A stretch of DNA of 64,000 nucleotides from an uncultured Candidatus Saccharibacteria bacterium (GCA_964504275.1 CAZDDV010000001.1:20982-84981), one strand, 5' to 3'; counted from the stretch's first letter, positions 3,564-25,286 are shown. Notes: a model not told the origin generated them from the letters alone. A program made the numbers and translations.

Positions 3564-3582
3564 ATGTTTTTCCTTTTTATTT

Positions 3583-4720: not shown

Positions 4721-4728
4721 ATTTTTTC

Positions 4729-6136: not shown

Positions 6137-6261
6137 GATTTGATTCCATCGTACCGCAAAAACGGCTATCAGAAAAGCCCCTGCAACTTGAATCCGATTT
6201 TCCGGTATCACAAAGGTTTCTTTTGTTATAAAATAAGCACGACAGGTTAATTTAGCTACTT

Positions 6262-9200
6262 ATGCAAAATATTTTTAAAGATTTTAAGGTGTGGTCTACT
6301 CGGTTTGCCCTTTTTACAGCAACCTTTGTGTTTTTTAGCACTCTTATTCTTGGCACCATGACCGCGCAAAAAATTAACGCGCAAACTAAGGTGCTACTAT
6401 CGCCGTCCGAACATGCAATTAAGTATCAGGTTATGCAGTTCCTAAAAGTTTGTGGCGACAACAAGGGCTGGCACAGTAGCCAAGGAGCTGGAACTCGGAG
6501 TGAGGGCCTCTCGGCAGAGGAGCTCAACCAAGGGCGGTTCTTTGATGATGAAATTAAAGATTCAACGATTTTTGGAAACGAAATCAGTGTAGGAGCGCTT
6601 ACTGATGATGATGATGGCAATTTCAACTGCTTAGTAAAGCAAGGGACACCCGCAGTTGTTGTTAACCAGCAATATGACGTACAAAAGGCGGTGCAATACC
6701 AGCAAGAAGACCTTATAAAGTTTCTCGTGGAGAGCAATGTATATCGTGTGGGCGAAAACGGCAGATATTACCTACATGATGAAGAAGATTCTGATCGCAG
6801 CAACAAAGTTATTGAGTATTTCAAGAATAACAATCAGGGATATTCATTCGACGGAGATCTGCCTGATAGTGCGAAATATTTTAACTGGAAGGCGTCCTAT
6901 TTAAAATTTTGTGCAGAAGGTGGAAAGCCAATCGATAGTGGCAGCATAGAATTGCCAAATGTAGGAGAAGACGGGAAAAGACAAAACGACAAGTTTCAAA
7001 TAAAAAGTGATGCGGCCGGAAATAAATCGGTTGGTAGAGGAATGGGCCAAGGAGATCGCGACGAATTCAGTTGTAATGAAATAGCCGACGGAATGCGCGC
7101 CACGGCCGACGCTGCAGTCAAGGGCGTCGAGGATTACGTAAAAGCTGGTGGTAAAGTTAAGCCGAACCCAAATGCGCCGGGTACGGCGGATGATGATAGC
7201 CCAACCTGCGAAAGCTCTGGCGGCATTACTTGGGTGATCTGCCCATTTATCAACGGTTTGGCCGAGCTTGCCGATGGTGCATTCGAAAAACTAATAATTC
7301 CACTACTCAAGACGAGTCCGGTCGACACGACCAATACTAGCAGCCCTATATTCCAGGTTTGGCTGGGGATGCGTAATGTTGCCAATATTTTGCTAGTTAT
7401 TGCCATGATCGTCATTGTGTTTGGTCAGGCAATTGGCGGAGGATTGGTAGACGCCTATACCGCCAAAAAAGTACTACCCCGCATCTTGGCAGCTGCAATT
7501 ATGATAAACCTGTCTATTTATATGGTCGCGTTTGCGGTCGATGTTACGAACGTTATTGGGCAAGGCTTATCAAGACTTATCTATGCACCATTTGATCAAG
7601 TTGGAGCTTTTAAATTTAATCTTTCTTCCTCTACAGCTGGGCTTGGTTTTGTAGGAATGATAGCTGCAAGTGCCGCCATTTGGAAGATCGGCGCTTTGAT
7701 TCCATATTTGTTACTCTTCGTTCTCCTACCCCTCGTACTCGCGGCAGTAGGTGTAATCTTTACGCTCGTACTGCGAATGGGGCTCATTCAGTTCCTGATA
7801 ATCAGCAGTCCGGTTGCTTTTGTGCTGTACTGCCTACCGAACACCGAAAAGTACTTTCAGAAATGGTGGAGTTTATTCATAAAGACATTAATGGTTTACC
7901 CTATCATTGTTCTGATATTCACATTAGCCGACGTAATCGCAGTTACAACGGACATTGCCGCTCAAGAAAGCGATCAAGAAGTTACAGCTGCATTTGGTCA
8001 ACTGATCTCTGTTGTTCTTCTGGTGCTGCCATTATTCATGGTACCCTACGCATTTAAGCTTGCTGGTGGTGCCGTTGGTGCCGTACACGGCGCCCTTTCT
8101 ACTGGCGGCAAAAAGAGCGTCGAAGCCATCAAGGGCAACCCCAACGACCCAAATAGTTTGCGCAACAGAACAAAACGTAACGTTGGATCCTCAATGGTTA
8201 AAAACCGCGCTCAGCTTGTTCGATCAAACCTCGACTATAAAGGCACGGGTTTGAACGCGCGACTCCGTCGAAAATTTGGCGAAAAAGTTAACTATGGAAA
8301 TATAATGGATAAAGAAGCCGAGATCAACGAAGATGCCGCTAAGCGAATGGGCCGAACGATTGGGGCGGGTGACGATCGATACATACGAGCACGGACTTCT
8401 TTGCCACTTTTCCAAAAAGCGGGAGGGGGCGAAACTACTAATACAGCAGAAGCTGTGATGGATACCAGTGGGACAGCTCTGCGCCTACTCAATAAAGATA
8501 CGGGTCAAGCAATGCGCACTTCACTTAATGGACAAAAACGTTTTACTGATGTCGACTACAAAAAGTCTACGCAACTATTCCAAACCATGGGTGAAATGCA
8601 AGAGGCAGTAAACCATGAAGCCAAAAAAACACTTACCGATGGCGACACCGACCGCTTAGTCGGAGGTTACGGCGATTGGGCAAAGCAAGAAGGATTGACG
8701 AAAGAGCAGGCCAGCGGATTATTCACAGGAGTTGCTTTTGCGCGGCAAGGTGAGCGACTTGAACTCAAGCACAGCACGGTGGATGAAGAGATTGACCCTG
8801 ACGATCCGAAAAAACGCAGACTATTCGTCAAAAGCGCAACTGACAATATGAGCGGCACATCAATTGATAGTACCGGTACTGTGAATAAAATCGGGGGACG
8901 CGATGCGTTTGTTCAAGAGCTCTATGACAAAAAGGGCAGTTGGGCAGTTTCACAAATGCATGATTCAACTATCAATCAAGTTGGTGAAGCTAAAGAAAAA
9001 TATGCTGCAGAAATTAAAGACCTATCTTCCAGAGAATCACTCGGAACACTCAGCGAGCAAGAACTTGGAAGGCTTAAATTATCACGGGAAAAACTTGATC
9101 ACATTCAAGAAATGGAAGAATCTTGGGTGGCCGACCCAACCCGAACCGCAACAGGAATTCCAATGGGTGCAGTCGATGACAAGGGTACGCCTGGCTATAG

Positions 9201-9405
9201 CGGCCTCAGCGGAGCAGCCGCTGGTGTATTAGCCGCCGCCAAACGAAGCGCTTTAACAACCCAGCTTGGCGCCGACGGCAAAACATATACAGTTCGAAAG
9301 ATCTACGACAATAAAGGCAATCTGGTGCCCCAAAACGTGCGTGGTGCTGCCATGCCGCCGAGAGGGCCACTCTCTCCAGGTGGTCCAGGAGTAACATCAT
9401 TTTAG
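6262..9405 (+). CDS. VirB6/TrbL-like T4SS polytopic membrane protein (1047 aa) with a large N-terminal extracellular domain and a long C-terminal tail.
   Basis: SP/TM, then a Cys-containing domain, then a block of at least 6 TM helices (aa 370-600), then a charged low-complexity C-terminus. Position upstream of the VirB3/VirB4-like genes. Confidence 0.45.
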   Translation: MQNIFKDFKVWSTRFALFTATFVFFSTLILGTMTAQKINAQTKVLLSPSEHAIKYQVMQFLKVCGDNKGWHSSQGAGTRSEGLSAEELNQGRFFDDEIKDSTIFGNEISVGALTDDDDGNFNCLVKQGTPAVVVNQQYDVQKAVQYQQEDLIKFLVESNVYRVGENGRYYLHDEEDSDRSNKVIEYFKNNNQGYSFDGDLPDSAKYFNWKASYLKFCAEGGKPIDSGSIELPNVGEDGKRQNDKFQIKSDAAGNKSVGRGMGQGDRDEFSCNEIADGMRATADAAVKGVEDYVKAGGKVKPNPNAPGTADDDSPTCESSGGITWVICPFINGLAELADGAFEKLIIPLLKTSPVDTTNTSSPIFQVWLGMRNVANILLVIAMIVIVFGQAIGGGLVDAYTAKKVLPRILAAAIMINLSIYMVAFAVDVTNVIGQGLSRLIYAPFDQVGAFKFNLSSSTAGLGFVGMIAASAAIWKIGALIPYLLLFVLLPLVLAAVGVIFTLVLRMGLIQFLIISSPVAFVLYCLPNTEKYFQKWWSLFIKTLMVYPIIVLIFTLADVIAVTTDIAAQESDQEVTAAFGQLISVVLLVLPLFMVPYAFKLAGGAVGAVHGALSTGGKKSVEAIKGNPNDPNSLRNRTKRNVGSSMVKNRAQLVRSNLDYKGTGLNARLRRKFGEKVNYGNIMDKEAEINEDAAKRMGRTIGAGDDRYIRARTSLPLFQKAGGGETTNTAEAVMDTSGTALRLLNKDTGQAMRTSLNGQKRFTDVDYKKSTQLFQTMGEMQEAVNHEAKKTLTDGDTDRLVGGYGDWAKQEGLTKEQASGLFTGVAFARQGERLELKHSTVDEEIDPDDPKKRRLFVKSATDNMSGTSIDSTGTVNKIGGRDAFVQELYDKKGSWAVSQMHDSTINQVGEAKEKYAAEIKDLSSRESLGTLSEQELGRLKLSREKLDHIQEMEESWVADPTRTATGIPMGAVDDKGTPGYSGLSGAAAGVLAAAKRSALTTQLGADGKTYTVRKIYDNKGNLVPQNVRGAAMPPRGPLSPGGPGVTSF

Positions 9406-9411
9406 GTAATT

Positions 9412-10488
9412 ATGGCGCAGTATAAAGTTTTACAGGATATAGAGGCAGAGGATAAGCTCCTTGGTCCATTAAGTTTGCGGCAATTTATCTACGCGATTAT
9501 TGTGATTGTGCTGGGGTTTATCGCTTTCAAGCTCGTGACCGTTGCTTGGTATTTGGTAATTCCTTTTTTACCGCCGATGGTGTTTTTTGGTTTATTGGCG
9601 GCGCCGATTGGCCAAAACCAGTCGTCTGAAGTTTGGCTGCTGGCCAAAATTCGCTTTTTTGTTTTTCCGCGACTGCGCATCTGGAACCAATCTGGAATAG
9701 AAGAACTAGTACACATTACCGTGCCTAAAAAAATCGAAAGATACTTGTCAAAGGGTTTTAGTAAAGACGAGGTTCGCAGCCGTCTGAACGCCCTTGCCAA
9801 CACACTGGATACGCGTGGATGGGCGATAAAAAACATTACGCCAGATGTTTTTAAACGCGCAACAGCGTTTAACTCTGCACAATCTGCTGATCGATTAATT
9901 GACATCAATAGTATTCCACAAAATGCACAGCCAAACGAAATGCCTGGCGACGATGTATTTGACGCACAAAGCAGCCCGCTGGCACGAATAACCAACCAGA
10001 ATATTCAGGCGTCGGCTGAGCAGCACCGTCAGCAATTGCTTGACAACATGCAAAACCAAATTGCCCAAACGCGAACAAGCGCGCCGCTAGCGCCAACAGC
10101 TCCGCAAACTACTCCCACGGCAAGCACACCAAATCTACCAAGCCTACCCAATCCAGTTGTTGTGTCGCCACACCCCGAAACACCAACGTCAACACCAATA
10201 CAACCGCAACCAATCTTGAGCAGTACCGGCCAACCCGTCCACGAAATGCCACAACCTACGCAACAACCCATACCGCTACCTCAACCGGCGCCAATGCCAG
10301 AGCCGATGCCGATTACTCCATATCAGCCGGCGCCTGCCAATATGCTGCAAAAGCCACAAGCGCCGATGACAAGCACAGCGCAAACTGTTAAACTAAATGA
10401 TGTTACGAATACTGATCGCAGTTCGATGAATGTGCCGCATGCAGACAACGATGATTCGCCAGACGAAGTCGTTATCTCGCTTCACTAA
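9412..10488 (+). CDS. PrgI/VirB3-like small membrane protein fused to a Pro/Thr/Gln-rich low-complexity C-terminus.
   Basis: N-terminus LLGPLSLRQFIYAIIVIVLGFIAFKL...IPFLPPMVFFGLLAAPIG (two TM helices). Position immediately 5' of the VirB4 region. Confidence 0.4.
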   Translation: MAQYKVLQDIEAEDKLLGPLSLRQFIYAIIVIVLGFIAFKLVTVAWYLVIPFLPPMVFFGLLAAPIGQNQSSEVWLLAKIRFFVFPRLRIWNQSGIEELVHITVPKKIERYLSKGFSKDEVRSRLNALANTLDTRGWAIKNITPDVFKRATAFNSAQSADRLIDINSIPQNAQPNEMPGDDVFDAQSSPLARITNQNIQASAEQHRQQLLDNMQNQIAQTRTSAPLAPTAPQTTPTASTPNLPSLPNPVVVSPHPETPTSTPIQPQPILSSTGQPVHEMPQPTQQPIPLPQPAPMPEPMPITPYQPAPANMLQKPQAPMTSTAQTVKLNDVTNTDRSSMNVPHADNDDSPDEVVISLH

Positions 10489-10502
10489 GCATCTCTCGGA
10501 GC

Positions 10503-11399
10503 GTGTTCGGTGGGCAAAATTATATGAATCCACAGCAAAATTTACCAAACCAGACTGTTCCACAATCTGCTCCGCCAAGTGCGGCCTTCGCGCCAAACCC
10601 GGTAGTTGTGTCTGGCCAGCCACAAAACGGCAACCAAACAAATTTACAACCGCCACAACCACAAGTAAAAGTTAACCCAACCAGTACGCAAAATGTGTTG
10701 CAAGTTGCCGAGATCCGAGACGGCATTGTGATCATGAATGACGGCTCATTCCGATCTGTTATTATGGCGAAATCGATTAACTTCGACCTGATGAGCCAGA
10801 TCGAACGCGAAGGTGTCGAGGGCGGCTACCAAGCGATGTTAAACTCACTGTATTTTCCAATCCAGATTTTTATGCGCAGCCAAAAAGTTGATTTGCGACC
10901 GTACATCGAAAAGCTCGACAAAATCCGCACCGAACACGACAACATGCTGTTAGCATTATTAATGGAAGATTACATAAATTATATTTCTGAGCTATCGACG
11001 CAAACCAACATCATGGACAAAAAATTCTATCTGGTGATCCCGTATTTTCCAAAGGCCGACGTGCAAAAAGCGATTACCCAAAGTAAAAACTTTTTTTCTG
11101 GACTAGGAAATATTTTTAACTCCAAGCCAACACATGTGACTATCAACGAAAAGGATTTAGAGGATGCAAAAATTGAACTCCGAAACCGCGTGCAATCAAT
11201 TTTGGGCGGACTAATGCGATGTGGTGTCAAAGCCCTGCCGCTGGATACGCAAGAATTAATCGAGCTATTTTATGACAGCTACAACCCCGATACCGCCACA
11301 CGCCAACAGCTCAAAAACTTTGATGATTTATCTGTGCCAATCGTAACCAAAGGCAAAGGCGCTGCGCCACAACCAAACCTCAACAAGGATCTCCAATGA
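10503..11399 (+). CDS. Hypothetical protein; possible detached N-terminal domain of VirB4.
   Basis: GTG (10503) or ATG (10524) start. P/Q-rich N-terminus. The stop overlaps the virB4 ATG (ATGATG at 11396-11401). Confidence 0.35.
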   Translation: MFGGQNYMNPQQNLPNQTVPQSAPPSAAFAPNPVVVSGQPQNGNQTNLQPPQPQVKVNPTSTQNVLQVAEIRDGIVIMNDGSFRSVIMAKSINFDLMSQIEREGVEGGYQAMLNSLYFPIQIFMRSQKVDLRPYIEKLDKIRTEHDNMLLALLMEDYINYISELSTQTNIMDKKFYLVIPYFPKADVQKAITQSKNFFSGLGNIFNSKPTHVTINEKDLEDAKIELRNRVQSILGGLMRCGVKALPLDTQELIELFYDSYNPDTATRQQLKNFDDLSVPIVTKGKGAAPQPNLNKDLQ

Positions 11400-13321
11400 T
11401 GTTTGGTAAAAAAATCCCTACTAATGACCCGGTGGCGCTAGCACAAGCCCAGCGCGCCCGCGAACAGCAAGAAGTAAGCGTTGCGTTCCAAAAAGGCGTG
11501 GTGGCGCTGCGAGATTTTATTGCACCAAGTTCGATCGAACTTAAAAACGCTTACTTTCACATCGGCACACGACTAGCCCGAACCTTTTACGTCTACGCCT
11601 ATCCGCGCCAGGTGTACACCGGCTGGCTCAGCGGCATGATTAATATCGACGAGATTATTGATTTATCAATGTATATCTACCCCGTAGAAAGCCAAGTCGT
11701 GCTCGAAAACTTGCGCAAAAAAGTTTCTCAGCTAGAAGCAGGGCTGCAAATTGACGCCGAAAAGGGCCGCGTGCGCGACCCGGGCAAACAAGCCGCAATT
11801 CAGGACGCCGAAGAAATGCGCGACAAATTGCAAGTTGGCGAAGAACGCTTCTTCCGCCTGGGCTTTTACTTTACGCTGTATGCCGACAGCTTGGATGAAC
11901 TCGACTTTGTCACGCACAAGATTGAATCGATGCTCGGCCAACAACTGGTGTACTCCAAGGTCGCAACAAGCCAGCAAGAACAAGGGCTCAACAGTACGAT
12001 TCCGCAGTTTACTGACCAGCTGCAAATTCGCCGCAACATGAGTACCGGAGCAATTAGCACGACATTCCCGTTCACTAGTGCCGACCTCAGCCAAGATTCT
12101 GGCATTTTGTACGGTATTAATATGCACAACTCTGGTCTTGTTATTTTTGATCGCTTTACGCTCGAGAACAGCAACTCGGTGGTGTTTGCAAAATCTGGTG
12201 CGGGTAAATCGTTTGCGGTCAAACTCGAAGCGCTGCGCAGCATGATGTTCGGCACCGAGGTTGTTATTATCGACCCAGAAAACGAATACCAGCGCATGTG
12301 CGAAGCAGTTGGTGGTGCGTATGTTCGGCTCAGTCTGTCGTCGGCGACTCGAATCAATCCTTTTGATTTGCCAAAAGTCATCGATACCGACGAATCCGAC
12401 AACGCCCTGCACAGCAACTCGATCACACTTCTGGGCCTACTGCGCCTAATGATGGGTGGCGCGCAAACCCAAATGTTGGCTTCGGCCTCTAGTGGCGGTG
12501 GTGGCTTTGCGCCGTCGTTATCTCCGGTTGAGGAAGCCGATCTTGATGCGGCAATTATCGAAACGTACGCCAAAGCTGGCATAACCAAAGATCCGCTGAC
12601 GCACAACTCGCCGCCGCCAACAATTACTGATTTATACGATACACTGCTACACATGGGCGGAACTGGGCCACAACTTGCCCAGCGACTGCGCAAATACACC
12701 ACTGGTACGTTTGCGGGAATCTTTAGCCAGCAGTCCAACATCGACATCAATAACCAAATGGTGGTGTTTAACATTCGCGATTTAGAGGACGAACTTCGCC
12801 CGGTTGCTATGTACATTGTGCTCAATTACATCTGGAACAAAACCAAATCCGACCAACGAAAACGCTTGTTGATCGTCGACGAAGCCTGGCAATTAATGAA
12901 GTATGAAGATTCGGCCAACTTTATGTTTAGTCTTGCCAAACGTGCCCGAAAATACAACCTGGGTATTACGACGATTTCGCAGGATGTCGAAGATTTCATG
13001 GCTAGCAGAATGGGCCGCGCCATCGTCGCTAATGCTTCGATGCAATTATTGCTCAAGCAGGCGCCTTCGGCAATTGATGTGTTGTCAGATATCTTTAAAC
13101 TCACCCAGGAAGAAAAAAGTCGCCTAACGCAGTTCCCGATTGGTCAAGGATTATTCTTTGCTGGCCAAAACCATGTGCATATTCAGATTATCGCCAGCCC
13201 AACCGAAACCGGCCTAATTACCACCAATCCTGCGCAGGTCCAACAAATGAACGAACAAGGACAACTTGAGGGCGAGCAGGGCACCATCGACCTTAAAAAC
13301 CGCCTCCAACCGGGCGTATAA
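11396..13321 (+). CDS. virB4: VirB4/TrbE-family T4SS ATPase.
   Basis: Walker A FAKSGAGKSF and Walker B LLIVDEAWQL. 641 aa. Confidence 0.8.
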   Translation: MMFGKKIPTNDPVALAQAQRAREQQEVSVAFQKGVVALRDFIAPSSIELKNAYFHIGTRLARTFYVYAYPRQVYTGWLSGMINIDEIIDLSMYIYPVESQVVLENLRKKVSQLEAGLQIDAEKGRVRDPGKQAAIQDAEEMRDKLQVGEERFFRLGFYFTLYADSLDELDFVTHKIESMLGQQLVYSKVATSQQEQGLNSTIPQFTDQLQIRRNMSTGAISTTFPFTSADLSQDSGILYGINMHNSGLVIFDRFTLENSNSVVFAKSGAGKSFAVKLEALRSMMFGTEVVIIDPENEYQRMCEAVGGAYVRLSLSSATRINPFDLPKVIDTDESDNALHSNSITLLGLLRLMMGGAQTQMLASASSGGGGFAPSLSPVEEADLDAAIIETYAKAGITKDPLTHNSPPPTITDLYDTLLHMGGTGPQLAQRLRKYTTGTFAGIFSQQSNIDINNQMVVFNIRDLEDELRPVAMYIVLNYIWNKTKSDQRKRLLIVDEAWQLMKYEDSANFMFSLAKRARKYNLGITTISQDVEDFMASRMGRAIVANASMQLLLKQAPSAIDVLSDIFKLTQEEKSRLTQFPIGQGLFFAGQNHVHIQIIASPTETGLITTNPAQVQQMNEQGQLEGEQGTIDLKNRLQPGV

Positions 13322-13332
13322 ATATTTAGATT

Positions 13333-16300
13333 ATGGGATTACCAGCAAGAAACCTCAACGAAGATGATGACCGAAAACTAAGCGCCGCCGAGCGAGCAGA
13401 GCGACAATGGGGGATGGATCCATCGTCTGAGCCAAAAAACCCAAACGATGACGATACAAAAAAATCGGCACGAGAACGTGCTGATGAAAGTTGGGGGATG
13501 AATTCTGGTGGCGAATCTGACACCAAAGATGGCGGACTGTACAACCCATCCGGCGATTCCGACGAACGCGCCGCTCTTGATGGATCTAAGCCAGATAGCG
13601 CGATGGGCGTGAAAGAGCTTTATGCTGGCGGTGACAAAGGCGGTGCGAAGCGGATTATCATAGAGGACTTCTTTCGCAAAAAAGGTATTCCAATAATTGG
13701 TGGTGGCGCTGGAGCCATAATGATCATTATGTTTTTATTCGTGTCGTTTTTTTCTATAAATAAAACTGCCCATATAATTGAAGATATCGAAAACAAAGTG
13801 GGTAATGTGCCCGAGTATGCCGTGGAGCGTCGCTTGGAATACTACATGAGCCGTTATTTGATTCTGCGACAACTTGCAAAAGCCGGCGTTCCGGAGGCTA
13901 CGATCCAAAAAGAATATGTGTACCTCAGTAAAAAGGGTAGTACTTTTGATACACTCTACACTAACTGGAAGGGAGCGAAGCTAGAGGGCCTCTTAGAAAG
14001 TGAGTATGGTGTGCGCTTGCAGCCACGTAATCTAGAGGTAAATACCAAGGTGTGGAATCGCGAATATGCGCAACCGAATCGTTGGGAGATTGAAATCGTA
14101 GATGCTGGCAAGGCAAGAGCAAAAGGCATTAACCCGGGTTCGTTAAATTCTATAGAATCGCGAAAATTTATAAATATTCTTGCCAACAAAGAAACCCGTT
14201 CGTTTCAGGTACTCAAGCGTTACAACGTGCGTAAAAACTTAAAAAAATACAATGGCATCGATGGCTGGAAACAATTTGCATACGACAAAAGCGAAAAATA
14301 CAAAAACGCCACAGATCGTTACCGAGAAGGTAAAAAAAACTTTAAGAAAAAAACCATAGAGAACACGATCAAAAGAGTCAACGTGAATTGGGGCAATTAT
14401 ATGATTTGTCTTATCGATGGCGACCCAAAAAAAGCCTGCAAGGATATTCGCAAGGGCAAGACCCCTTCCACAGAAGTAGGCAGCATGATTGATGAAAGCG
14501 AACTAACTGGAGTGGTCGACGAGGCGCTAGACAAAAAGATAGTACGCGAAGGAGCCGAAGAAGCAGGCGAACGCGCAGGGAAAGAGATCACTCAAAAAGT
14601 AACGGCGTCGACGGTCAAAAAATTCTCTGCTCGCGCAATACCTGTGGTTGGCTGGGTGATCGGCGCTAGCCATCTTATTAACTCTGCTGATAATGGAATA
14701 CTAAGCCAGGTCATATACCAAAGAAACGCTACTCAGTATGGGGCGTTCGGCGCAGGGTTCATGAGCGGGTCTGACCAAATAAAGTCTGGTATCGACATAG
14801 ACGGTGACGATGCGCGAGTTCTCAATGAAACGTTTACCAATTACGAGCAGGAAAGCCAAGTTTACCGCGCTTCTCGGCCAGGCTATAAAATTGAACCGGG
14901 TAAAAAAATAAAACAAGACTGCAATAACGACGGCGACACAACTGATGCAGATGATTTTGTGACATCCGATGACCCTGTGTGCGCGTCTAAGAAAATACTC
15001 CAACCCAAAGAAACTTTCACAGAAGACCCTGCCTGGGAGGTTGTTGCCGGACTATCCCAAAAACTAACTGGAGAAGACAGCTGGATAAAATCAGTGATCG
15101 ACGTTTTTGAAGGTGGGTTAGCAACAGTTATGGAAAAAACAGGCATCTCGGCTGGTATTGCATATATCATAGAAGAAACTGGTGCAGATAAAGCGCTTGC
15201 TGAGAAATTTCAAGAGCTGCTCGCTAAAATAGCGGCCCCTGTTATTACTGGTGCAGAGTCAGGAGGCTCAGCATACGATGCGTTATTCGCTAGCATCTCG
15301 GTCCAAAAATCTTCTCTTGGTGGCGGTGTTGGCGAAAATCGTGAAGATACAATTGGAGGTGCGGTTTTAAGCATGGAGGAGGTCGCCCAGATAAAAGAGG
15401 ATCAGTACGATAAACGACAGTTAGAGTTGAGGGGCACTGAGAAGTTTGCCAGATACTTCTCGCCCGATATCCCCGAAAGTCTAACGTCACAAGCGGTGAT
15501 GGCGCTACCGTCATCCTCGACGCAAACTGTGAGCAAGTTTAGTAGTTTGCTCAATCCAGGAAATTTTATTAAAGGGTTGGCATCAGCTTTCACGAGCAGT
15601 GCAGAAGCCCAAAACTCACAAGACTATAACTTCTTTAATGCGATTTACTACGGATACCCGTCGGACAGCGACGTATTCAATGCAAATGATGGCAGCGGGA
15701 TGGAGCACGATGAGTTGTATAAAAAATACAAATGCGATGAGCCTATTGAGAAGCGTCAGGAAAATTCAATGGGCAATGTTGAAGGAATTCCGTTCAAAGT
15801 GGCAGTCAAAGTAGACCCATGCTTGCTCGAAAAGGCGGTCGAAGACGCCGGCAGTCGATACTTTACCGGTGCGTATGACGAAGGTATCGACGAAGGGTCG
15901 AAAAGAACCTCTGGCGGCCAAACTGGCCTACTTAACCCGGGTGGCTTGGCGTGGCCAACCAAGGCCGAAGGTTCTCATATATCTAGCTGTTTTAACGAAC
16001 CGCGCTCTGGCGGGCCCCACAAAGGAATGGATATTGCCATTGCAGCCGACACTCCAGCGTTTGCAGTCGCTGACGGCGAAGTCATCATAGCTGGCGGCAA
16101 GGCAGACGGCTACGGACCAAACTATGTCGCCATAAAACACACCAAAGCCGACGGCACCACCTTTGTTTCTGGTTATGGACACATGAATTCAAAAACAGTT
16201 GAGGTTGGCGACAAAGTTACACAAGCTCAGCAAGTGGGCACTATTGGTAGTCTGGGTTATTCTACAGGACCCCACATGCACGTCATCATAAATGTCGGTG

Positions 16301-16395
16301 GGAAAGATAATTTTAATGGCGATGTTGACCCGCTTACTAATGGGATGGAAGTTCCCCCGGGAGCACTGAACGCAAAAGGGTGCCCGAAGTACTAA
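13333..16395 (+). CDS. T4SS-associated cell-wall hydrolase. Acidic N-terminal tandem repeats, one TM, a large central domain and a C-terminal M23/LytM peptidase.
   Basis: Repeats AERAERQWGMDPS / ARERADESWGMNSG. TM IIGGGAGAIMIIMFLFVSFF. M23 motifs PHKGMDIA...GHMNS...GPHMHV. Confidence 0.6.
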   Translation: MGLPARNLNEDDDRKLSAAERAERQWGMDPSSEPKNPNDDDTKKSARERADESWGMNSGGESDTKDGGLYNPSGDSDERAALDGSKPDSAMGVKELYAGGDKGGAKRIIIEDFFRKKGIPIIGGGAGAIMIIMFLFVSFFSINKTAHIIEDIENKVGNVPEYAVERRLEYYMSRYLILRQLAKAGVPEATIQKEYVYLSKKGSTFDTLYTNWKGAKLEGLLESEYGVRLQPRNLEVNTKVWNREYAQPNRWEIEIVDAGKARAKGINPGSLNSIESRKFINILANKETRSFQVLKRYNVRKNLKKYNGIDGWKQFAYDKSEKYKNATDRYREGKKNFKKKTIENTIKRVNVNWGNYMICLIDGDPKKACKDIRKGKTPSTEVGSMIDESELTGVVDEALDKKIVREGAEEAGERAGKEITQKVTASTVKKFSARAIPVVGWVIGASHLINSADNGILSQVIYQRNATQYGAFGAGFMSGSDQIKSGIDIDGDDARVLNETFTNYEQESQVYRASRPGYKIEPGKKIKQDCNNDGDTTDADDFVTSDDPVCASKKILQPKETFTEDPAWEVVAGLSQKLTGEDSWIKSVIDVFEGGLATVMEKTGISAGIAYIIEETGADKALAEKFQELLAKIAAPVITGAESGGSAYDALFASISVQKSSLGGGVGENREDTIGGAVLSMEEVAQIKEDQYDKRQLELRGTEKFARYFSPDIPESLTSQAVMALPSSSTQTVSKFSSLLNPGNFIKGLASAFTSSAEAQNSQDYNFFNAIYYGYPSDSDVFNANDGSGMEHDELYKKYKCDEPIEKRQENSMGNVEGIPFKVAVKVDPCLLEKAVEDAGSRYFTGAYDEGIDEGSKRTSGGQTGLLNPGGLAWPTKAEGSHISSCFNEPRSGGPHKGMDIAIAADTPAFAVADGEVIIAGGKADGYGPNYVAIKHTKADGTTFVSGYGHMNSKTVEVGDKVTQAQQVGTIGSLGYSTGPHMHVIINVGGKDNFNGDVDPLTNGMEVPPGALNAKGCPKY

Positions 16396-16396
16396 T

Positions 16397-18268
16397 ATGA
16401 GGATACCTTTTACGAATCTGATGATTTGGCTACGACTACTAAAGAGACTGTCCTTGTTGATACTGGCTGTTCTGTTTTTATCGAGTCTTGCTCTGACCAC
16501 CAAAGTTTCGGCACAAACACCTCAGCCGACAGAGTTAACCCGCGATCAAGCCATGAACTATCCGATGCTTGGTTTTGGTGGCTGTAGTGGCACCCCGGGA
16601 AGCTCAGCGCCCTCAGCAAAAATAAATGGCAAAAATATCTACATACTTGGTGACTCAATCACCGCCGGCGCTAAAGATGCATACAAAGATGCGTTCAAGG
16701 ACAAGGACCTAACCATCAGTGCTAGAGTGGGACGTTCGTGGGGAACGGCAGGGCAAGACTCGCCAGCAAACATTGGCAGCCAAGGCACTGGTAAAGAGGC
16801 CTTCGCGGCCGACACTGAAAAAATTAAATCCGCGGACGCAATTATTATTGCGCTCGGCACCAACCAAATGGGTGGAGATGAAGCCAGCCAAAACCCGATC
16901 GGGAGCATCATTACCGCTTTCCGTGGCGTCAATGAAAAAGCCCCAATCTGGTGGGTAAATATCGCTAACAGCGGGGTCGCGGGAGTACCTAGTTTCAACG
17001 AAACACTCAAACAACAGGCAGGCGATAAGTATACCGTGATCGACTGGGCAAAAACCGTTGACCCAACTGGGGATGGCACAAATAACCCCGGCAAACTCCT
17101 GTCGACCGACGGGACACACCCAAGCTCCGAGGGTACCAAAAAATTGGTTGATTTGGTCGTTAGTGCTGTCACAAGCGGCGCTGGCGTACAAAATAATGGA
17201 GTTGCGGCTGGTGACTGTAAATGTAGTAGCGGTGGCACTACAGGCGGAGGAGACGCGATCACCAAATTCTTGCAAGCGCTGGCATTCCAAGAAAGTGGCG
17301 GACAGTTGAACTTAGTGAGTTCTGGTTCAGCGCGTGGAAAATTCCAGTATATTGACTCGACGTGGAAAGGCGTCGCCCAAAAGTACTATCCACACGCGTT
17401 GAAATACGCAAACGCAAACGGGGCGCCAGAATCAGTCCAAGACGCACTCGTCTATATCGAGTACACCGATAAATTTAACACTTTTAACGGCGATCTGTTC
17501 AAGCTGGCTGTCAGCCATTTCTATCCTTTGGCAAACCAGGAGGCTAAGTGGCTCGACATAATTCCGCCATCAAATGTCGTAACTCCAAGACAATACGCAG
17601 AGAAATTAGTTGCGGGATATAACAGTGGTGCCGGAAAAGAAATAAAATTCTACTATAACGATGCGCCGGAGTTTAAAGAATCTCTTGCTGCTGTTGGTGG
17701 CCAAACTACCGCTAGCGTAAAAAGCGGTGAGGGCAGTTGCAGCGCGCCTGGCCAAATCGGACCAGGTGAAGCCGCTGGTAAGATCGTGGAAACCGCTCTT
17801 AACCTGGCATGGGACACCAAAAAAGACGGATTAATTGAAGAGAAAGACGCAAAACCAACCTACCAAGCGGCCATGCCAAAATTTAATGGAAGCACCAACA
17901 CAACCGGCGATCCAAAACTAACGCCATGGTCCGATTGTGGTGTATTTGTCGCAACGGTCATGCATATGAGCGGCGTTGATACAGCATATCCAAAACGTAA
18001 CACTCTTACTCAAGAACCATATACGACAAACTCCGAAAGATACGAGCGCATCACGAACGTGACCGACTCTTCACAACTAAAGCCCGGGGACATCATTATA
18101 AACAAACACCACACAATGATTTTCGTCGGCCCACAAACAGGCCCAGCGGGTGAATACAACACCGTTGACGCATCATTTGGTGATCGCGTACCCGGAGCAA
18201 AAGTCTTTGCTCCTCATCCAGACACCCAAGACCCTGATTCGTATGATGCGTATAGGATAAAAGGATAA
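16397..18268 (+). CDS. Secreted multidomain peptidoglycan hydrolase: SGNH/GDSL hydrolase plus lytic-transglycosylase-like domain plus C-terminal CHAP/NlpC-P60-like domain.
   Basis: Signal peptide. GDSITAG block. FLQALAFQESGG (SLT-like catalytic E). SDCGVFVATVMHMSG...HHTMIFVG (Cys/His). Confidence 0.5.
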   Translation: MRIPFTNLMIWLRLLKRLSLLILAVLFLSSLALTTKVSAQTPQPTELTRDQAMNYPMLGFGGCSGTPGSSAPSAKINGKNIYILGDSITAGAKDAYKDAFKDKDLTISARVGRSWGTAGQDSPANIGSQGTGKEAFAADTEKIKSADAIIIALGTNQMGGDEASQNPIGSIITAFRGVNEKAPIWWVNIANSGVAGVPSFNETLKQQAGDKYTVIDWAKTVDPTGDGTNNPGKLLSTDGTHPSSEGTKKLVDLVVSAVTSGAGVQNNGVAAGDCKCSSGGTTGGGDAITKFLQALAFQESGGQLNLVSSGSARGKFQYIDSTWKGVAQKYYPHALKYANANGAPESVQDALVYIEYTDKFNTFNGDLFKLAVSHFYPLANQEAKWLDIIPPSNVVTPRQYAEKLVAGYNSGAGKEIKFYYNDAPEFKESLAAVGGQTTASVKSGEGSCSAPGQIGPGEAAGKIVETALNLAWDTKKDGLIEEKDAKPTYQAAMPKFNGSTNTTGDPKLTPWSDCGVFVATVMHMSGVDTAYPKRNTLTQEPYTTNSERYERITNVTDSSQLKPGDIIINKHHTMIFVGPQTGPAGEYNTVDASFGDRVPGAKVFAPHPDTQDPDSYDAYRIKG

Positions 18269-18271
18269 CCC

Positions 18272-18937
18272 ATGCAATTTGATGGAATTTCATTAATAAA
18301 ACGCTATAAAAACCTTCTAATTATTGGAGCGGTCTTGATTGCAGTAGGGCTTATCGCGTCTCAAGCATACAACTATTGGCGCGCGCAAAACTACGCCGTG
18401 CTAATCGTGAACGGATCTCCGGTTGACCTCACAATGCAACTCGGAGACAAGAAGTACAAAAAACCATCCAAAATTTACGTTTCGCCAGGCGAATACACAC
18501 TAGGGTTTTCACGCGATAACTTTTCGTCAACATCCAGAAAAGTAACTCTTGAAAAACAAAAAACCACCACAGTTAACGTTCCGCTATACGCCACCAACGA
18601 AGAAGGGGAGAAATATTTTAAAATCCCTGCTAACCAAACGCAAGCAGAGTTTGTTGGTGGGCTTTGGGAAGACGAAACTTCGACCAAGTTCACTAATGAC
18701 TTCCCGATTGTTCGCTCACTCCCTATTACTAGGCGTGATTTTATTATCGATTATTCATCACGTGGAGAGCTCGAAAATCGTACCATTTATATTCGGATTA
18801 CACATGCTGGTACGCTCGGCAAAAAAAATGCCGAAGACTGGATTCGTCAAAAAGGCTATGATCCAGCGACGTTCGATATTTCGTACATTGATATTTCAAA
18901 AATTCCAATAGGAACCGATGAGGGAAGCGGGCATTAA
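18272..18937 (+). CDS. Hypothetical membrane-anchored protein; last gene of the T4SS-like operon, possible VirB8-like component.
   Basis: N-terminal TM LLIIGAVLIAVGLIASQAY. SD aaggat. Confidence 0.3.
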   Translation: MQFDGISLIKRYKNLLIIGAVLIAVGLIASQAYNYWRAQNYAVLIVNGSPVDLTMQLGDKKYKKPSKIYVSPGEYTLGFSRDNFSSTSRKVTLEKQKTTTVNVPLYATNEEGEKYFKIPANQTQAEFVGGLWEDETSTKFTNDFPIVRSLPITRRDFIIDYSSRGELENRTIYIRITHAGTLGKKNAEDWIRQKGYDPATFDISYIDISKIPIGTDEGSGH

Positions 18938-18944
18938 GCTCCAG

Positions 18945-20000
18945 CTACAACATAATCAGTTTGCTGGTTTGGGCGAAGTTATGGGCGATGACGTCCGCAT
19001 CTGTAGTTGTGATGAACGTTTGATAATTGCGCAAAAATCTGGTTAGACTTTTTCGGCGCACGCCATCAAGCTCGCTAAACACATCGTCAAATAGCAAAAG
19101 TGGCCGCAAGCCGCGGGACTGTTCGAGCATCAGCAGTTCTTGAATCTTTAGGCTGAGCAATATTGTGCGCGTCTCGCCGCGTGAGGCTGCTTGTAGTAAC
19201 GGCCGGTTGTTAATTGTAATCAATAGGTCATCTCGGTGCGGACCATTGCCCGTAAAGCCTCTCTGCAAGTCTTCGCTTATTGTGGCCTCCAATCTTTTTA
19301 GTAGTGAGCTGCCGTACTGGTCCAACTGACATTCGCTTTCGTACGCCAGAGCAATAACATCCTTGCTCCCGGCAATCTCTTGATAATTATTAGTAAACTT
19401 AGCGTTTATTGTTTCGATAATTGCCTGGCGCTTGTTGGCTATCACTGCACCAAATTCGCTGAGACGCAGATTCCAAACAAATAATTGTTGGGCAGCGTCC
19501 TGTGGTTTTTGTTTTAAAAGAGCGTTTCGCTGCGCGAGTACACGTTCGTAATTTCGTTGTTGCTTGGAATACTCCGGGTCAATTTGGCTGAGCAAATCAT
19601 CGATAAACAAACGGCGCTGCGAGGGGGAAGTCGTAATTGATTGCAATTGGTTAGGCTCAAATAACACTATTGGGATTGTTTGCGCAAAGTTCAGGCGTTT
19701 TCGAGTTTGTTCATCAATTTCGAATGTTTTATCAATCTTCTCGCCTTGTTTTTGTAGCTTTACTACCCTGGTTTGATTCTGTTCGTCGGTGCTATCCAAA
19801 CGTGCCCATTCTTGGTCATTTTGCACTAAATCGATGTCGCGTGCTCGATACGAACTGCCGCGGCACAACACCAAAATCGCTTCGAGCAAATTAGTTTTAC
19901 CGCTGGCATTTGGGCCAACTACAATATTCACGCCAGCCTCAAACTCAAACGATTGATCGCCGTACGAACGAAAATTTTTAATTCGTAAGCTCGTAATCAT
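18945..20000 (-). CDS. recF: DNA replication and repair protein RecF.
   Basis: MITSLRIKNFRSYGDQSFEFEAGVNIVVGPNASGKTNLLEAI; Walker A. Confidence 0.9.
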   Translation of the reverse strand: MITSLRIKNFRSYGDQSFEFEAGVNIVVGPNASGKTNLLEAILVLCRGSSYRARDIDLVQNDQEWARLDSTDEQNQTRVVKLQKQGEKIDKTFEIDEQTRKRLNFAQTIPIVLFEPNQLQSITTSPSQRRLFIDDLLSQIDPEYSKQQRNYERVLAQRNALLKQKPQDAAQQLFVWNLRLSEFGAVIANKRQAIIETINAKFTNNYQEIAGSKDVIALAYESECQLDQYGSSLLKRLEATISEDLQRGFTGNGPHRDDLLITINNRPLLQAASRGETRTILLSLKIQELLMLEQSRGLRPLLLFDDVFSELDGVRRKSLTRFLRNYQTFITTTDADVIAHNFAQTSKLIML

Positions 20001-20024
20001 ATATTCATTATCTAGGTTTTGTAC

Positions 20025-21122
20025 CTAACTTTTCAATGGCATGACTATGTGTATATATTCGTCACCGTCTTTGCTGACACTTTTTATTACCACAGGGTCG
20101 AGTTTGCCGTTAAAACAAAACGCCACCATATCGCTTTTAATCGCTTGCAGGCCTTCTAGTAAATAGCGTGAGTTTAGTGTGATGTCGCCGTTACTCGAAA
20201 CAACTGCTTCGGCACTAGCGGTGTTTTCACCAACTTGTGATGCGACCGATCGAATGCTAATTGTTTTCGTTTCGTCGTCAAGATGCACTGTAATACTACC
20301 GGCACTTTCACGAGCAAAAAGACTAGAAACTTTCGTAATATTTATGAGTTCTTCGCGGGAAACCTCAGCAACACAGGTAAAGTTTGATGGAATTAATTTT
20401 TGATAATCCGGGTATTTTCCTTCGATCAAACGCGCAACTAGTTCGGTTGGTCCAACCTTAAATAACACCTGTTGTTCGTCGTGAGTTATATCTACCGTTT
20501 CAATGTCGTCAGAAATAATTCGCAGTAAATCTTGCATCGCACTATTTGGTACGAGCACATTAATTTCTTCTGAAACGCCGTCAACTATTTTTTGTGCTAA
20601 TCGGTAACTGTCGGTTGCTGCAATATATAATTTCCCGTCATTTGAGTGCATAAATACTCCAGTGAGCACCGGGCGAGCTTCGTCGTTTGATGCCGCAAAC
20701 ACTACTTGCTGTAACGCTTTTTTAAGTTCTTGGGCGGGGACTTTCCATGATGTACCATCAGTAATAATTGGCATTACAGGGAATTCTTCGCTTGAAACTC
20801 CGTTAATTGTTGAGTCGTAATTACCAGCTTTTATATGTAATTTATGTTCCTCTTGTTTAATCGCGATTGTACCTTTTGGTAAACTCGACACAAAATCTTG
20901 CATGAGCCGGGCTGGAATCGTGAGCGTTCCTTCGCTTGCTACCTTGGCGCCAATCACTTGAGTAATCGCAATATCCAAATTTGTTGCTGAGATAGAAAGA
21001 CGATTATCTTCGATCTTTAAAAGCACATTACTTAAAATTGGTAGTGTACTTCGCCCGCCAGCAACTCGTGCAACGATTGCTAATGCTTTGTTTAAATTTT
21101 CCTGAGTAACTTGTAAATCCAT
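20025..21122 (-). CDS. dnaN: DNA polymerase III beta sliding clamp.
   Basis: Typical N-terminus MDLQVTQENLNKAL...TLPILSNVLL; about 365 aa; synteny with dnaA and recF. Confidence 0.9.
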   Translation of the reverse strand: MDLQVTQENLNKALAIVARVAGGRSTLPILSNVLLKIEDNRLSISATNLDIAITQVIGAKVASEGTLTIPARLMQDFVSSLPKGTIAIKQEEHKLHIKAGNYDSTINGVSSEEFPVMPIITDGTSWKVPAQELKKALQQVVFAASNDEARPVLTGVFMHSNDGKLYIAATDSYRLAQKIVDGVSEEINVLVPNSAMQDLLRIISDDIETVDITHDEQQVLFKVGPTELVARLIEGKYPDYQKLIPSNFTCVAEVSREELINITKVSSLFARESAGSITVHLDDETKTISIRSVASQVGENTASAEAVVSSNGDITLNSRYLLEGLQAIKSDMVAFCFNGKLDPVVIKSVSKDGDEYIHIVMPLKS

Positions 21123-21395
21123 TACGAGAGCTCCTTATATGTATTTAATATAGTTTTAATAGTAGGCATTGTGGATAATGGGTATAACCATGAATTAACA
21201 GAGAGAATTTGAAAGAAATTGCCTGTTGATTGGTTGTGGAAACAACTCCCATAACGTTTGTATAAGTTAAATCTTGGAAGTCTAAAAATAGTAGAGTTGT
21301 GGATGGTCTTGTATAACTCGACGAGTTGTACAAGACTTGTGCGCAGGTTATGCATGGCTAATCCACAACACCAATCCATAAAATCAGAAAAAACA
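21123..21395. promoter_or_regulatory. oriC half: DnaA-box cluster plus AT-rich DUE candidate between dnaA and dnaN.
   Basis: Perfect TGTGGATAA at 21169-21177. Near-boxes TAATCCACA (21358-21366), TGTGGATGG (21289-21297), TGTGGAAAC (21234-21242). AT-rich 21135-21165. Confidence 0.6.
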
Positions 21396-22763
21396 CTAGA
21401 CATACAAACGTTCCTTAATATGACCTATTGCGGTTTTAATGCTTGGATCAGCAGCAGATTCGCGCTCAATTTTTTCGACAGAATGAATGGCGGTAGTGTG
21501 ATCTTTGCGTCCAAGCTCACGAGCAATTTTCGGGAAACTTAAATGGAGTTCGCTCCGAAGCATATACATTGCGACTTGGCGCGGCACGACAATATCTTTG
21601 TCGCGCTTTGGACCCAAAATATCATCGGTAGAAATTTGAAAATACTTGGCGGTTCGTTCAATAACTTGGCGCGCACTGATGTGTTTTGGGCGAATACGAC
21701 TGGCGCCCAGAACGCTTTTGGCCATCGCAAGATCAGGGGTTATGTTGCGCATTTCACACATTGCAATTAACTGGTTGAGCGCGCCTTCAAGCTCGCGAAT
21801 GTTGGTTCGCACGTTCGTCGCAAGATGTTCTACGACGGGCGGAGTGAGTTCAAACCCGGCTGCCCCGGCTTTGGTTTGCACGATCGCACAACGCGTCTCA
21901 AAATCTGGAATCTGCATGTCTATATTCATGCCCCACGCAAACCGTGATTTTAATCGTTCCTCGAGTGTTGGAATATCTTTTGGCGGTTTATCACTACTGA
22001 TAATAATTTGCTTGTTGGCTTGGTGGAGCGCGTTAAAAGTGTGAAAAAATTCTTCCTGAGTTTTTTCTTTACCGGCAATAAATTGAATGTCATCAATAAT
22101 GAGCACGTCTGCAGATCTATAATATCCGGCAAAATCGGTATTTTTTTTGAATCGAATCGCATCTAAAAATTCTTGCACAAACTGCTCGGTCGAAATATAC
22201 ACCACGTGCGCTTTTGGATTCTGGGCAATAACTTCGTTGCCAACCGCTTGGATCAAATGCGTTTTTCCAATTCCAACGCCACCATATAAAAACAAAGGAT
22301 TGTATTTTTTGCCCGGCATGGCCGCAATCGCCTGGCAAGCAGCGTAGGCAAGTTCGTTGCCTGAGCCAACAATAAAGCTTTCAAAGGTGTATTTGTCGTT
22401 TAAGCCCTTGCGGTAGCTGTGGCTGAGGCTACTTTTTGTGACCGAGCTGGCTGTTTTGGTCTGTCCTTTTGGCCTGTCGATAACAACAGCAATTTCTTCA
22501 ACAATTTTTTTATGAGCGCTCCCGGAGTGGATTTTATAATCGATACGTTTTGGGGTGAACCCGTTGTGCTCCAATGCATCTGAGACTAGTTGATTAAACT
22601 TGCGCTCCAATTGCTGCTTAATAAATATATTTGGCACACCGATTGTCAAAACATTGTTTTCAAACCGAACCATACGGGTATTTTTAAACCACGTTACAAA
22701 GCTGGCCCGCGAAACCGACACTTCGATTTCTCCTAGAACTGCCTGCCATACGTGATCTTGCAT
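21396..22763 (-). CDS. dnaA: Chromosomal replication initiator DnaA.
   Basis: AAA+ Walker A GVGIGKTHL and a C-terminal DnaA-box-binding domain. ATG 22763 with SD GAGGGG, preferred over the extended ORF-track start. Confidence 0.9.
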   Translation of the reverse strand: MQDHVWQAVLGEIEVSVSRASFVTWFKNTRMVRFENNVLTIGVPNIFIKQQLERKFNQLVSDALEHNGFTPKRIDYKIHSGSAHKKIVEEIAVVIDRPKGQTKTASSVTKSSLSHSYRKGLNDKYTFESFIVGSGNELAYAACQAIAAMPGKKYNPLFLYGGVGIGKTHLIQAVGNEVIAQNPKAHVVYISTEQFVQEFLDAIRFKKNTDFAGYYRSADVLIIDDIQFIAGKEKTQEEFFHTFNALHQANKQIIISSDKPPKDIPTLEERLKSRFAWGMNIDMQIPDFETRCAIVQTKAGAAGFELTPPVVEHLATNVRTNIRELEGALNQLIAMCEMRNITPDLAMAKSVLGASRIRPKHISARQVIERTAKYFQISTDDILGPKRDKDIVVPRQVAMYMLRSELHLSFPKIARELGRKDHTTAIHSVEKIERESAADPSIKTAIGHIKERLYV

Positions 22764-22793
22764 AACCCCTCGTCTTATCTGTTTTCCACCCAT

Positions 22794-23093
22794 TTCGTAG
22801 TGCTAACTATACGCGCCTCGGCTCGACTTTTCCACATGTTGGTAAAAATTACGCCAATCTATATAAAAAATCCGCGAACAGATTGAAAGTTATACACACC
22901 ACACGCTAACACCTTAGGAAGTGTGGACAAAAATGCTGTTTTGGTGGATAAGTCGCTTCATGTGGTGGGGTAAATATTGTAAATACTACGTCTCAAGCAA
23001 CGATACGCAAAAATTGGTTCCTAATGCTAGGACTTGCAATAACAGTGGTTTTCTGGTAGTTTTTATAGGTTAACTTAATTCTTTTATACACAT
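22794..23093. promoter_or_regulatory. oriC half / dnaA promoter region with DnaA boxes.
   Basis: TTTTCCACA (22828-22836), TGTGGACAA (22923-22931), GGTGGATAA (22943-22951). AT-rich tract at about 22858-22875. Confidence 0.55.
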
Positions 23094-23231
23094 ATGCCTA
23101 AACGAACATACCAACCAAAGAAACGCCACCGCGCTCGACAGCACGGATTTTTTAAGCGCATGGCTACCAAAGCCGGACAACGCGTTCTGAGAGCTCGTCG
23201 ACTTAAGGGTCGCAAGCAATTGACCCAATAA
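23094..23231 (+). CDS. rpmH: 50S ribosomal protein L34.
   Basis: Translation reads [45 protein letters not shown], the classic L34 sequence. Found by manual reading because it is under 60 aa. Confidence 0.9.
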
Positions 23232-23311
23232 GACTTATTAAAGCAACATTTGTTCCATACTTTTATTTGAAAGTATCATCATATTGACGCAGATCGTACT
23301 ATGCTAGAAGT

Positions 23312-23656: not shown

Positions 23657-23747
23657 ATGTAATCACTTAGTCGTTACGGTGCAGTCGTCAGCGTGGTATC
23701 ATACATATACAATATATCCGCTTTGAATGCACGTGAGGAGTTCGCCG

Positions 23748-25276: not shown

Positions 25277-25286
25277 TCTAGTTTGG

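Follow-up and report, generated by a model that had tools for sequence, protein, structure and literature searches.

The Patescibacterial type IV secretion system (T4SS) was the first of its kind found to be indispensable to the cell that bears it. In Southlakia epibionticum ML1, the locus comprises dnaA, dnaN and recF (SEML1_0001-0003), a PEGA protein (SEML1_0005), a 643-amino-acid (aa) protein with two lysozyme-like domains and a cysteine proteinase domain (SEML1_0006), an 1113-aa protein whose sole recognised domain, at residues 951-1105, is of the Hedgehog/DD-peptidase type (SEML1_0007), VirB4 (SEML1_0008), a TrsD-like protein (SEML1_0009), PrgI (SEML1_0010), VirB6-like proteins (SEML1_0011 and SEML1_0013), pilins (SEML1_0014-0019) and Hsp20 (SEML1_0020); transposon sequencing classed SEML1_0005-0010 and SEML1_0014-0019 as growth-defective or essential, with SEML1_0005-0008 essential for epibiotic growth, and SEML1_0012 as non-essential (Wang et al. 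2023, PMC10633639). According to Quinonero-Coronel et al. 2025, VirB1 may be replaced by homologues of peptidases and lysozymes encoded downstream of virB4 in Patescibacteria, in which TrsG/CD419/VirB1-type homologues are mostly unlinked to virB4 (PMC12102498), and a review of T4SS nomenclature lists VirB1-like components for the Patescibacterial system (PMC12857230). Since the annotation and the essentiality of SEML1_0006 and SEML1_0007 are published, wall hydrolases at this T4SS locus were already known. Here, we describe their counterparts, proteins A and B, in a stretch of 64,000 nucleotides (nt) from an uncultured Candidatus Saccharibacteria bacterium (GCA_964504275.1, CAZDDV010000001.1:20982-84981; hereafter the window). 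We consider it likely that A and B form the PrgK/VirB1-equivalent wall-breaching module of the Saccharibacterial T4SS, with A anchored in the membrane by an N-terminus that faces inward and B secreted.

The original prediction placed two consecutive open reading frames (ORFs) of 1020 aa and 623 aa directly after VirB4, and we find them exactly so: protein A at 13333-16395 and protein B at 16397-18268 (positions are those of the window, on the plus strand unless otherwise given). The VirB4 ATPase lies at 11396-13321 (NCBIfam CD1110-type VirB4, 365.7 bits), and the exported PEGA-domain protein, the last gene of the operon and the equivalent of SEML1_0005, at 18272-18937. The A gene starts 11 nt after the VirB4 stop, 1 nt separates A from B and 3 nt separate B from the PEGA gene; because these gaps are just 1 to 11 nt, we take VirB4, A, B and PEGA to be a single operon. 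The locus is a Saccharibacteria/Patescibacteria T4SS near dnaA, that is, chromosomal, origin-proximal and pilus-bearing.

The gene order of S. epibionticum ML1 (dnaA-dnaN-recF, then PEGA, hydrolase, large protein, VirB4, TrsD-like, PrgI, VirB6-like and pilins) recurs in the window, as do the Hsp20, ComF-like and tRNA-Ser genes beyond the pilin array. In both loci, the recognisable domain of the large protein is found only at its C-terminus, and the second protein ends in a cysteine-proteinase fold. The two loci differ in the cargo of the large protein (Hedgehog/DD-peptidase, M15-type, in ML1; M23 here), in the second protein (glucosaminidase plus PF18013 in ML1; an OatA-like SGNH domain plus an SLT-like domain here), and in that ML1 has two VirB6-like genes with an NTF2-like gene between them. 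We judged the equivalence of A and B to SEML1_0007 and SEML1_0006 by position and architecture, not by sequence alignment.

Among Gram-positive systems, a close parallel is PrgK of pCF10, a DELTA-class VirB1 with LytM, muramidase and CHAP domains, whose gene likewise directly follows that of a VirB4 homologue in the order PrgH-PrgI-PrgJ-PrgK. Our finding that A and B occupy the PrgK position, in the order VirB6-like, PrgI, VirB4, hydrolase, upholds the view of the pair as the cell-wall-hydrolase module of a monoderm-type T4SS. PrgK also shares a cytoplasmic N-terminus with a single transmembrane (TM) helix, and the combination of LytM/M23, lysozyme-like and Cys/His domains. However, these three kinds of domain are divided over two proteins here, the ~700-aa scaffold that precedes the M23 domain has no counterpart in PrgK, an SGNH domain has been added, and the M23 motifs are intact, whereas LytM and CHAP seem to be regulatory in PrgK. 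TraG (pIP501), Orf14 (Tn916) and CwlT-type hydrolases, which join an SLT or muramidase domain to a CHAP or NlpC/P60 domain, follow the two-domain logic seen at the core of B, where a lysozyme-like module precedes a Cys/His peptidase module, but B differs from these in having a signal peptide instead of a TM anchor, an additional N-terminal SGNH domain, and a Cys/His domain that falls below the Pfam thresholds for CHAP and NLPC_P60.

We find protein A to be a scaffold, conserved and linked to the T4SS, whose enzyme tip can be swapped. Its sole Pfam match is Peptidase_M23 (PF01551; 72.7 bits compared to a cut-off of 28.7) at residues 895-991 (16015-16305), a LytM-type domain that aligns with solved M23 chains in the PDB with E-values as low as 1e-17. 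The M23 domain foreseen by the original prediction is thus present, and its motifs are complete (H896-x3-D900, the middle H950, and H981-x-H983); by these motifs, the tip is a predicted metallo-endopeptidase whose catalytic site is intact. Residues 1-866, by contrast, gave no Pfam match even at E<=10. We rejected the description of A as a giant multi-domain hydrolase, since it carries a single catalytic domain of ~100 aa on a non-catalytic scaffold of ~860 aa. The previously unannotated part, a TM helix and a ~700-aa ectodomain, makes up ~85% of the protein.

The cytoplasmic N-terminal tail of A (residues 1-117; 13333-13683) is not conserved in homologues. It does contain the two tandem repeats that had been noted, imperfect and 18 aa long (DDDRKLSAAERAERQWGM, residues 11-28; DDDTKKSARERADESWGM, residues 39-56), but the tail is only mildly acidic (26 D/E compared to 20 K/R), and we rejected the repeats as a family feature since every homologue lacks them. 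As predicted, a single TM helix follows (~residues 117-149; 13681-13779; from a hydropathy scan), in which G123 and G124 are invariant. Because basic residues sit on the N-side of this helix, we assign A an N-in/C-out topology. The ectodomain scaffold (~710 aa; 13780-15912) is mostly helical and without a Pfam or PDB relative, and the boundary between scaffold and cargo is marked by a junction motif, DPCLLEKAVEDAGSRYFTGAYDEGID (residues 828-853; 15814-15891), which is characterised by DPCLL and, in the wider family, by SLLxxDDLA.

Alignment of the relatives of A revealed a conserved block that extends from the TM helix to ~residue 860, followed by a variable C-terminus. With this block as query (alignment A2), an exhaustive profile search gathered 1307 representatives of clusters when the cut-off was E<=1e-3, and 609 when it was E<=1e-30, so that the family has at least 1307 clusters at 50% identity, and nearly all matches were full-length, in proteins of 820-1320 aa. 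Every one of 35 family members retains Cys359, Cys530 and Cys830; Cys550 is likewise invariant, but in that set only. A scaffold profile built from 35 cargo-less proteins found no Pfam family and nothing credible in the PDB (the best match was a designed TM protein, E 0.03). The AlphaFold2 (AF2) model of the scaffold (A residues 105-862, from a 10-sequence alignment) had a mean predicted local distance difference test score (pLDDT) of 50.5 and a predicted template modelling score (pTM) of 0.33; since the model was too poor for a fold search, we claim no fold.

We examined the cargo of the best 155 scaffold-family members and found more than 10 unrelated types. The largest class was VanY/M15 (n=42), some members of which have an extra GDSL domain, followed by an M23-like class (n=30) and an unnamed class (n=30) with HYTGDAVDF...HLH motifs that is LAS-like in appearance. 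Rarer tips were M74-like (n=4), GH5 cellulase (n=2), NlpC/P60 (n=2), phosphoesterase (n=1), right-handed beta-helix (one Pfam-confirmed and one recognised by eye), a tail with a HELGH motif suggestive of a metalloprotease (n=1) and, in one protein, the Cys/His domain of protein B itself. HxxxD and HxH are both retained in 10 of the 30 M23-like tips, the tip encoded in the window being among them. The family thus resembles polymorphic toxins (Rhs, CdiA-CT, LXG and "evolved" VgrG) in having a conserved N-terminal delivery part, a junction motif and a variable C-terminal enzyme. Unlike those toxins, however, the A family has no small immunity gene downstream (the next gene encodes another hydrolase), its cargo is mostly wall-degrading and not cytotoxic, and A is membrane-anchored.

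Protein B carries three wall-directed modules behind a Sec-type signal peptide (residues 1-39; 16397-16513), for which the sequence suggests a cleavage site at KVSA/QT; the database copy of B (P0001) begins 20 codons later. A phmmer search of the PDB with the whole protein returned nothing at E<=1, and all matches came from domain profiles alone.

The first module, at residues 81-253 (16637-17155), is the SGNH/GDSL esterase-type domain that had been predicted, with Pfam matches above cut-off (PF13472, 40.6 bits compared to 32.9; PF00657, 29.4 compared to 23.6) and with the expected residues in block I (GDS, S87), block III (GTN, N156) and block V (DxxH, D238 and H241). In 16 homologues, G-D-S, G-T-N and H-P are invariant, and the block V Asp is not present in all. 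A profile of these 16 modules matched best, in the PDB, the extracytoplasmic SGNH domain of OatA (6WN9/6VJP, E 6e-11), and also OatA 5UG1/5UFY and PatB 7TJB/7TRR (identities of these entries checked against PMC9487903). Like OatA-C, PatB and Ape1, SGNH proteins that act on the 6-O-acetyl group of N-acetylmuramic acid (MurNAc), the modules homologous to that of B all keep the catalytic Ser, the His and the Asn of block III. OatA-C, however, is a transferase fused to an AT3 acetyl-donor domain, whereas B has no AT3 domain and is fused to a glycan-cleaving domain, from which we argue that B would act as an esterase.

The second module, at ~residues 285-437 (17249-17707; E299-S300, GKFQY and YNSG), was predicted to be transglycosylase-like. 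In isolation, it narrowly misses the Pfam cut-offs (PF01464, 21.0 compared to 21.3; PF06737, 24.4 compared to 27), but the catalytic Glu of the E299-S motif is invariant in 18 of 18 homologues, and many B homologues have precomputed matches to PF06737 or PF01464. An AF2 model of B residues 273-623 had a mean pLDDT of 81.6, with ~90 over this domain, and a Foldseek search of the PDB with it gave family-1 lytic transglycosylases (Cj0843, Slt, MltE and LtgA) at ranks 1-31, with probabilities of up to 1.0 and E-values of only 0.02-0.2. The invariant Glu and the modelled fold thus support a lytic-transglycosylase-like (LT-like) assignment for this lysozyme-like domain, although not at Pfam thresholds.

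The third module, at ~residues 458-623 (17768-18265), had been called a CHAP domain, a family assignment that we reject: CHAP (PF05257) gave no match in B even at E<=10, and the domain itself produced only faint matches to NLPC_P60 and ELLD (E ~0.07). All 19 homologous domains share D-C514-G, G-D and H572-T without variation; NLPC_P60 was matched weakly by 13 of them (best 3e-5), ELLD by eight (2e-6) and CHAP by two (E ~0.08). In sister proteins, true CHAP domains stand in the place of the Cys/His domain, and its hhalign comparison with these gave a probability of 89.6% (E 2e-6) with the Cys aligned. The AF2 model has a helix followed by a beta-sheet, and a profile search of the PDB found Spr/MepS only, as a weak match (E 0.2-0.4). 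On sequence comparison, then, the C-terminal domain of B is a divergent, papain-like member of the NlpC/P60-CHAP superfamily. Counting A and B together, conserved catalytic residues are found in all four domains; we saw no loss of them, which the original prediction had named as grounds for its refutation.

In all nine distinct loci that we fetched, which include lineages in which VirB4 identity is as low as 79%, VirB4 is followed first by the scaffold protein and then by the hydrolase protein, and in these loci the gene after the scaffold protein always encodes another hydrolase and is followed by PEGA. The content of the two proteins varies. An M23 tip is paired with an SGNH-SLT-Cys/His or a GDSL-PF18013-C39_2 protein, an M74-like tip with a PF18013-M23 protein, a VanY tip with an Amidase_3 protein or a PF18013 protein, and a scaffold without cargo with a PF18013 or a GDSL-PF18013-CHAP protein. 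Peptide-cutting activity is predicted in every locus and a recognised glycan-cutting domain is present in all but one, and the parts that supply them are non-orthologous. Similarly, the SGNH, LT-like and Cys/His modules of B occur in varied orders and combinations among 72 homologues, with PF18013, CHAP, Amidase_3, M23, C39_2 and GH3 as partners, and the lysozyme-like and Cys/His modules are directly adjacent in 21 of the 72. Overall, A and B diverge far faster than VirB4 (41-52% compared to 94% aa identity). In one related locus (L010), a second VanY-bearing protein of 956 aa is encoded at 14483-17353 of that locus, a few genes downstream of the scaffold protein; it could be a second, paralogous representative of the scaffold family.

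The scaffold also varies between nearly identical genomes. We compared the window base by base with contig L001 (ENA ERZ505514), which is otherwise 99.9% identical. From 13000 to the virB4 stop, the two have no differences, and from 15817 to 26395 they have only seven. Between these flanks, at 13322-15816, DNA identity falls to 30-65%, and this allelic cassette, in L001 and also in L002, encodes a 42-64%-identical version of A residues 1-828 (tail, TM helix and scaffold); protein identity is 42% for residues 118-645 and 64% for residues 646-860. The breakpoints are the virB4 stop on the 5' side and the DPCLL junction motif on the 3' side; hence, the M23 tip and gene B are common to both alleles. 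Thus, in the observed pair the conserved part has been exchanged and not the cargo, which again differs from polymorphic toxins. With the allele of another species, whose VirB4 is 94% identical, the window allele shares 52% identity, more than the 42% that it shares with its conspecific counterpart; this points to scaffold alleles that have been exchanged or long maintained.

There is a second divergent patch at 9390-9880 (L001 1-500), covering the VirB6-like gene's 3' end together with the N-terminus of PrgI, with 86 differences in ~490 bp; L001 terminates ~285 bp upstream of it, within the VirB6-like gene, and only three differences from L001 are found in the 3.4 kb that follow the patch. 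The membrane and surface parts that flank the invariant TrsD-VirB4 segment may be strain-variable.

In the mechanism that we propose, A would be held in the membrane with its N-terminus inside, and its ~700-aa ectodomain would work as a stalk or scaffold in association with the channel of the T4SS, presenting an exchangeable C-terminal enzyme, here an M23 domain that would cut peptide cross-links. B would be exported by Sec with three activities on one chain. Its OatA/PatB-like SGNH domain most likely strips the 6-O-acetyl group from MurNAc; this de-O-acetylation would free the C6 hydroxyl needed by the adjacent LT-like domain for cutting glycan, and the papain-like Cys/His domain would cut stem peptides or an amide bond. 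We infer the substrates, the coupling of de-O-acetylation to the LT-like domain, the association of A with the channel and the additional host-wall target. As judged from the sequences, the host envelope is probably targeted besides the cell's own wall: the rapid turnover of parts, the non-peptidoglycan cargo of some relatives and the allele swap all favour a target that varies.

Several points weigh against this proposal. Gene order is what ties A to the channel, and no feature found here separates action on the own wall from action on the host wall. Cargo is absent in 36 of the 155 scaffold members, and 20 of the 30 M23-like tips are degenerate, with DxGxD in place of HxxxD and no HxH; hence, the scaffold family does not always require an active tip, and the likeness of these tips to the degenerate LytM domains of EnvC and NlpD is a hint that in many lineages they serve for regulation or binding. 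The solved structures nearest to the SGNH domain belong to O-acetyl-transferases rather than esterases, and it is solely because B has no AT3 donor domain fused to it that we favour the esterase direction. Finally, PrgK calls for caution, as it shows that domains annotated as LytM and CHAP may have a regulatory part and that one annotated as "SLT" may act as a muramidase (PMC12857230).

We considered that the pair might have a purely self-directed VirB1 role, in which the cell's own peptidoglycan is opened locally for assembly of the T4SS channel and the VirB2-like pilus without any action on the host. This is the established function of VirB1-class hydrolases (PMC12102498), and both the operon position and the N-terminal membrane anchor are as in Gram-positive PrgK and TraG; we give it a real, though lesser, chance of being right. 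If it were so, the chemistry of the own wall should stay constant, yet close relatives carry non-orthologous catalytic modules; moreover, some members carry GH5, phosphoesterase or beta-helix cargo, which is without a peptidoglycan substrate, and a scaffold allele has been swapped between 99.9%-identical genomes.

An extension of the proposed host-directed role of A and B is that the scaffold family is a strain-variable, T4SS-linked device, built like a polymorphic effector, that carries interchangeable "warheads" for the host envelope (peptidoglycan peptidases, and also cellulase, phosphoesterase and polysaccharide-lyase-like domains) and determines host range through exchange, between lineages, of whole scaffold alleles and of cargo. 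We advance this broader idea tentatively and think it, as yet, rather unlikely to hold in full.

Since both the window and L001 are metagenome assemblies, we also considered that the cassette might be an assembly artefact, a chimeric contig that joins two co-occurring Saccharibacteria at conserved sequence. The breakpoints do lie in conserved sequence (the end of virB4 and DPCLL), where assembly graphs may cross over, and the window allele is recorded on one contig only. Nevertheless, an artefact appears improbable: both flanks are 100% identical for kilobases, well beyond a junction k-mer, and both alleles are intact ORFs. Moreover, two independent data sets, the second being Logan SRR6448204, have the alternative allele (P0074) between these same flanks, and a near-identical third copy comes from JGI. 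In addition, exchanged alleles typically show the pattern seen here, with the window allele more like that of a different species (52%) than like its conspecific counterpart (42%).

That A and B are housekeeping autolysins for growth or daughter-cell separation (budding), merely located beside the T4SS near the origin, is very improbable, because although M23, NlpC/P60-like and LT domains are typical of the divisome and of autolysins and the genes are essential in S. epibionticum as expected for division genes, the tight one-operon spacing and the strict adjacency of the scaffold family to VirB4, in every locus fetched and at VirB4 identities as low as 79%, speak against it.

Upstream of VirB4, the operon encodes a polytopic VirB6-like protein of 1047 aa (6262-9405; identified from its position and from TrbL_3 at a homologous locus), a PrgI/VirB3-like protein (9412-10488) and a TrsD/VirB4-N-terminal-like protein of 298 aa (10503-11399). 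VirB4 is thus split, with the TrsD/VirB4-N-like ORF overlapping the ATPase ORF by 4 nt (ATGA), which agrees with the TrsD and VirB4 pairing reported as typical of Patescibacteria. An array of six VirB2-like T4SS pilin genes occupies 2626-5634 on the minus strand, and in the last of these (4729-5634, 301 aa) the pilin domain is preceded by an N-terminal extension, ~230 aa long and rich in Cys. Between the array and the VirB6-like gene, at 5618-6211 on the minus strand, is a 197-aa ORF with an N-terminal TM helix and no Pfam match; the corresponding neighbourhood in S. epibionticum encodes an NTF2-like (VirB8-like) protein. Two tRNA-Ser genes and a ComF-like phosphoribosyltransferase gene are found at 764-1855, and Hsp20 at 1899-2381; since this order is that of SEML1_0020-0022 of S. 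epibionticum ML1, synteny reaches past the T4SS.

On the other side, recF, dnaN and dnaA lie downstream of the PEGA gene on the minus strand. The T4SS operon (8000-18000) has a G+C content of 0.47-0.50, compared to ~0.42-0.44 elsewhere in the window, and a strongly positive AT skew (0.14-0.20) compared to the remaining window. The region from 23700 to 64000 is mostly a surface-polysaccharide and glycosylation cluster, with GT2, GT4/GT1 and PMT-like glycosyltransferases, a Wzx-type flippase, a UDP-glucose dehydrogenase and an initiating sugar transferase; a scan of ten large ORFs in this region showed neither a relaxase nor a coupling protein.

The core point of the original prediction, a hydrolase pair after VirB4, repeats published annotation. 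What we add is the scaffold family with interchangeable tips, the fusion of an OatA-like SGNH domain to an LT-like domain, and the allelic cassette; a limited search of the literature yielded no paper that describes the scaffold family, the polymorphism of its tips or the swap of alleles. The wall-cutting activities carried by A and B, and the modular exchange of these activities, bear on the question of whether this T4SS opens the host wall for attachment or feeding. The fusion of an OatA-like SGNH domain to a transglycosylase-like domain suggests a route past O-acetylated, and thus lysozyme-resistant, host walls. Moreover, the polymorphic tips and the allele swap between near-clonal genomes make this a candidate host-specificity locus in the Saccharibacteria, which are now genetically tractable. 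If this is true, the exchange of scaffold alleles and of "warheads" would tune which host bacteria a Saccharibacterium attaches to and feeds on.

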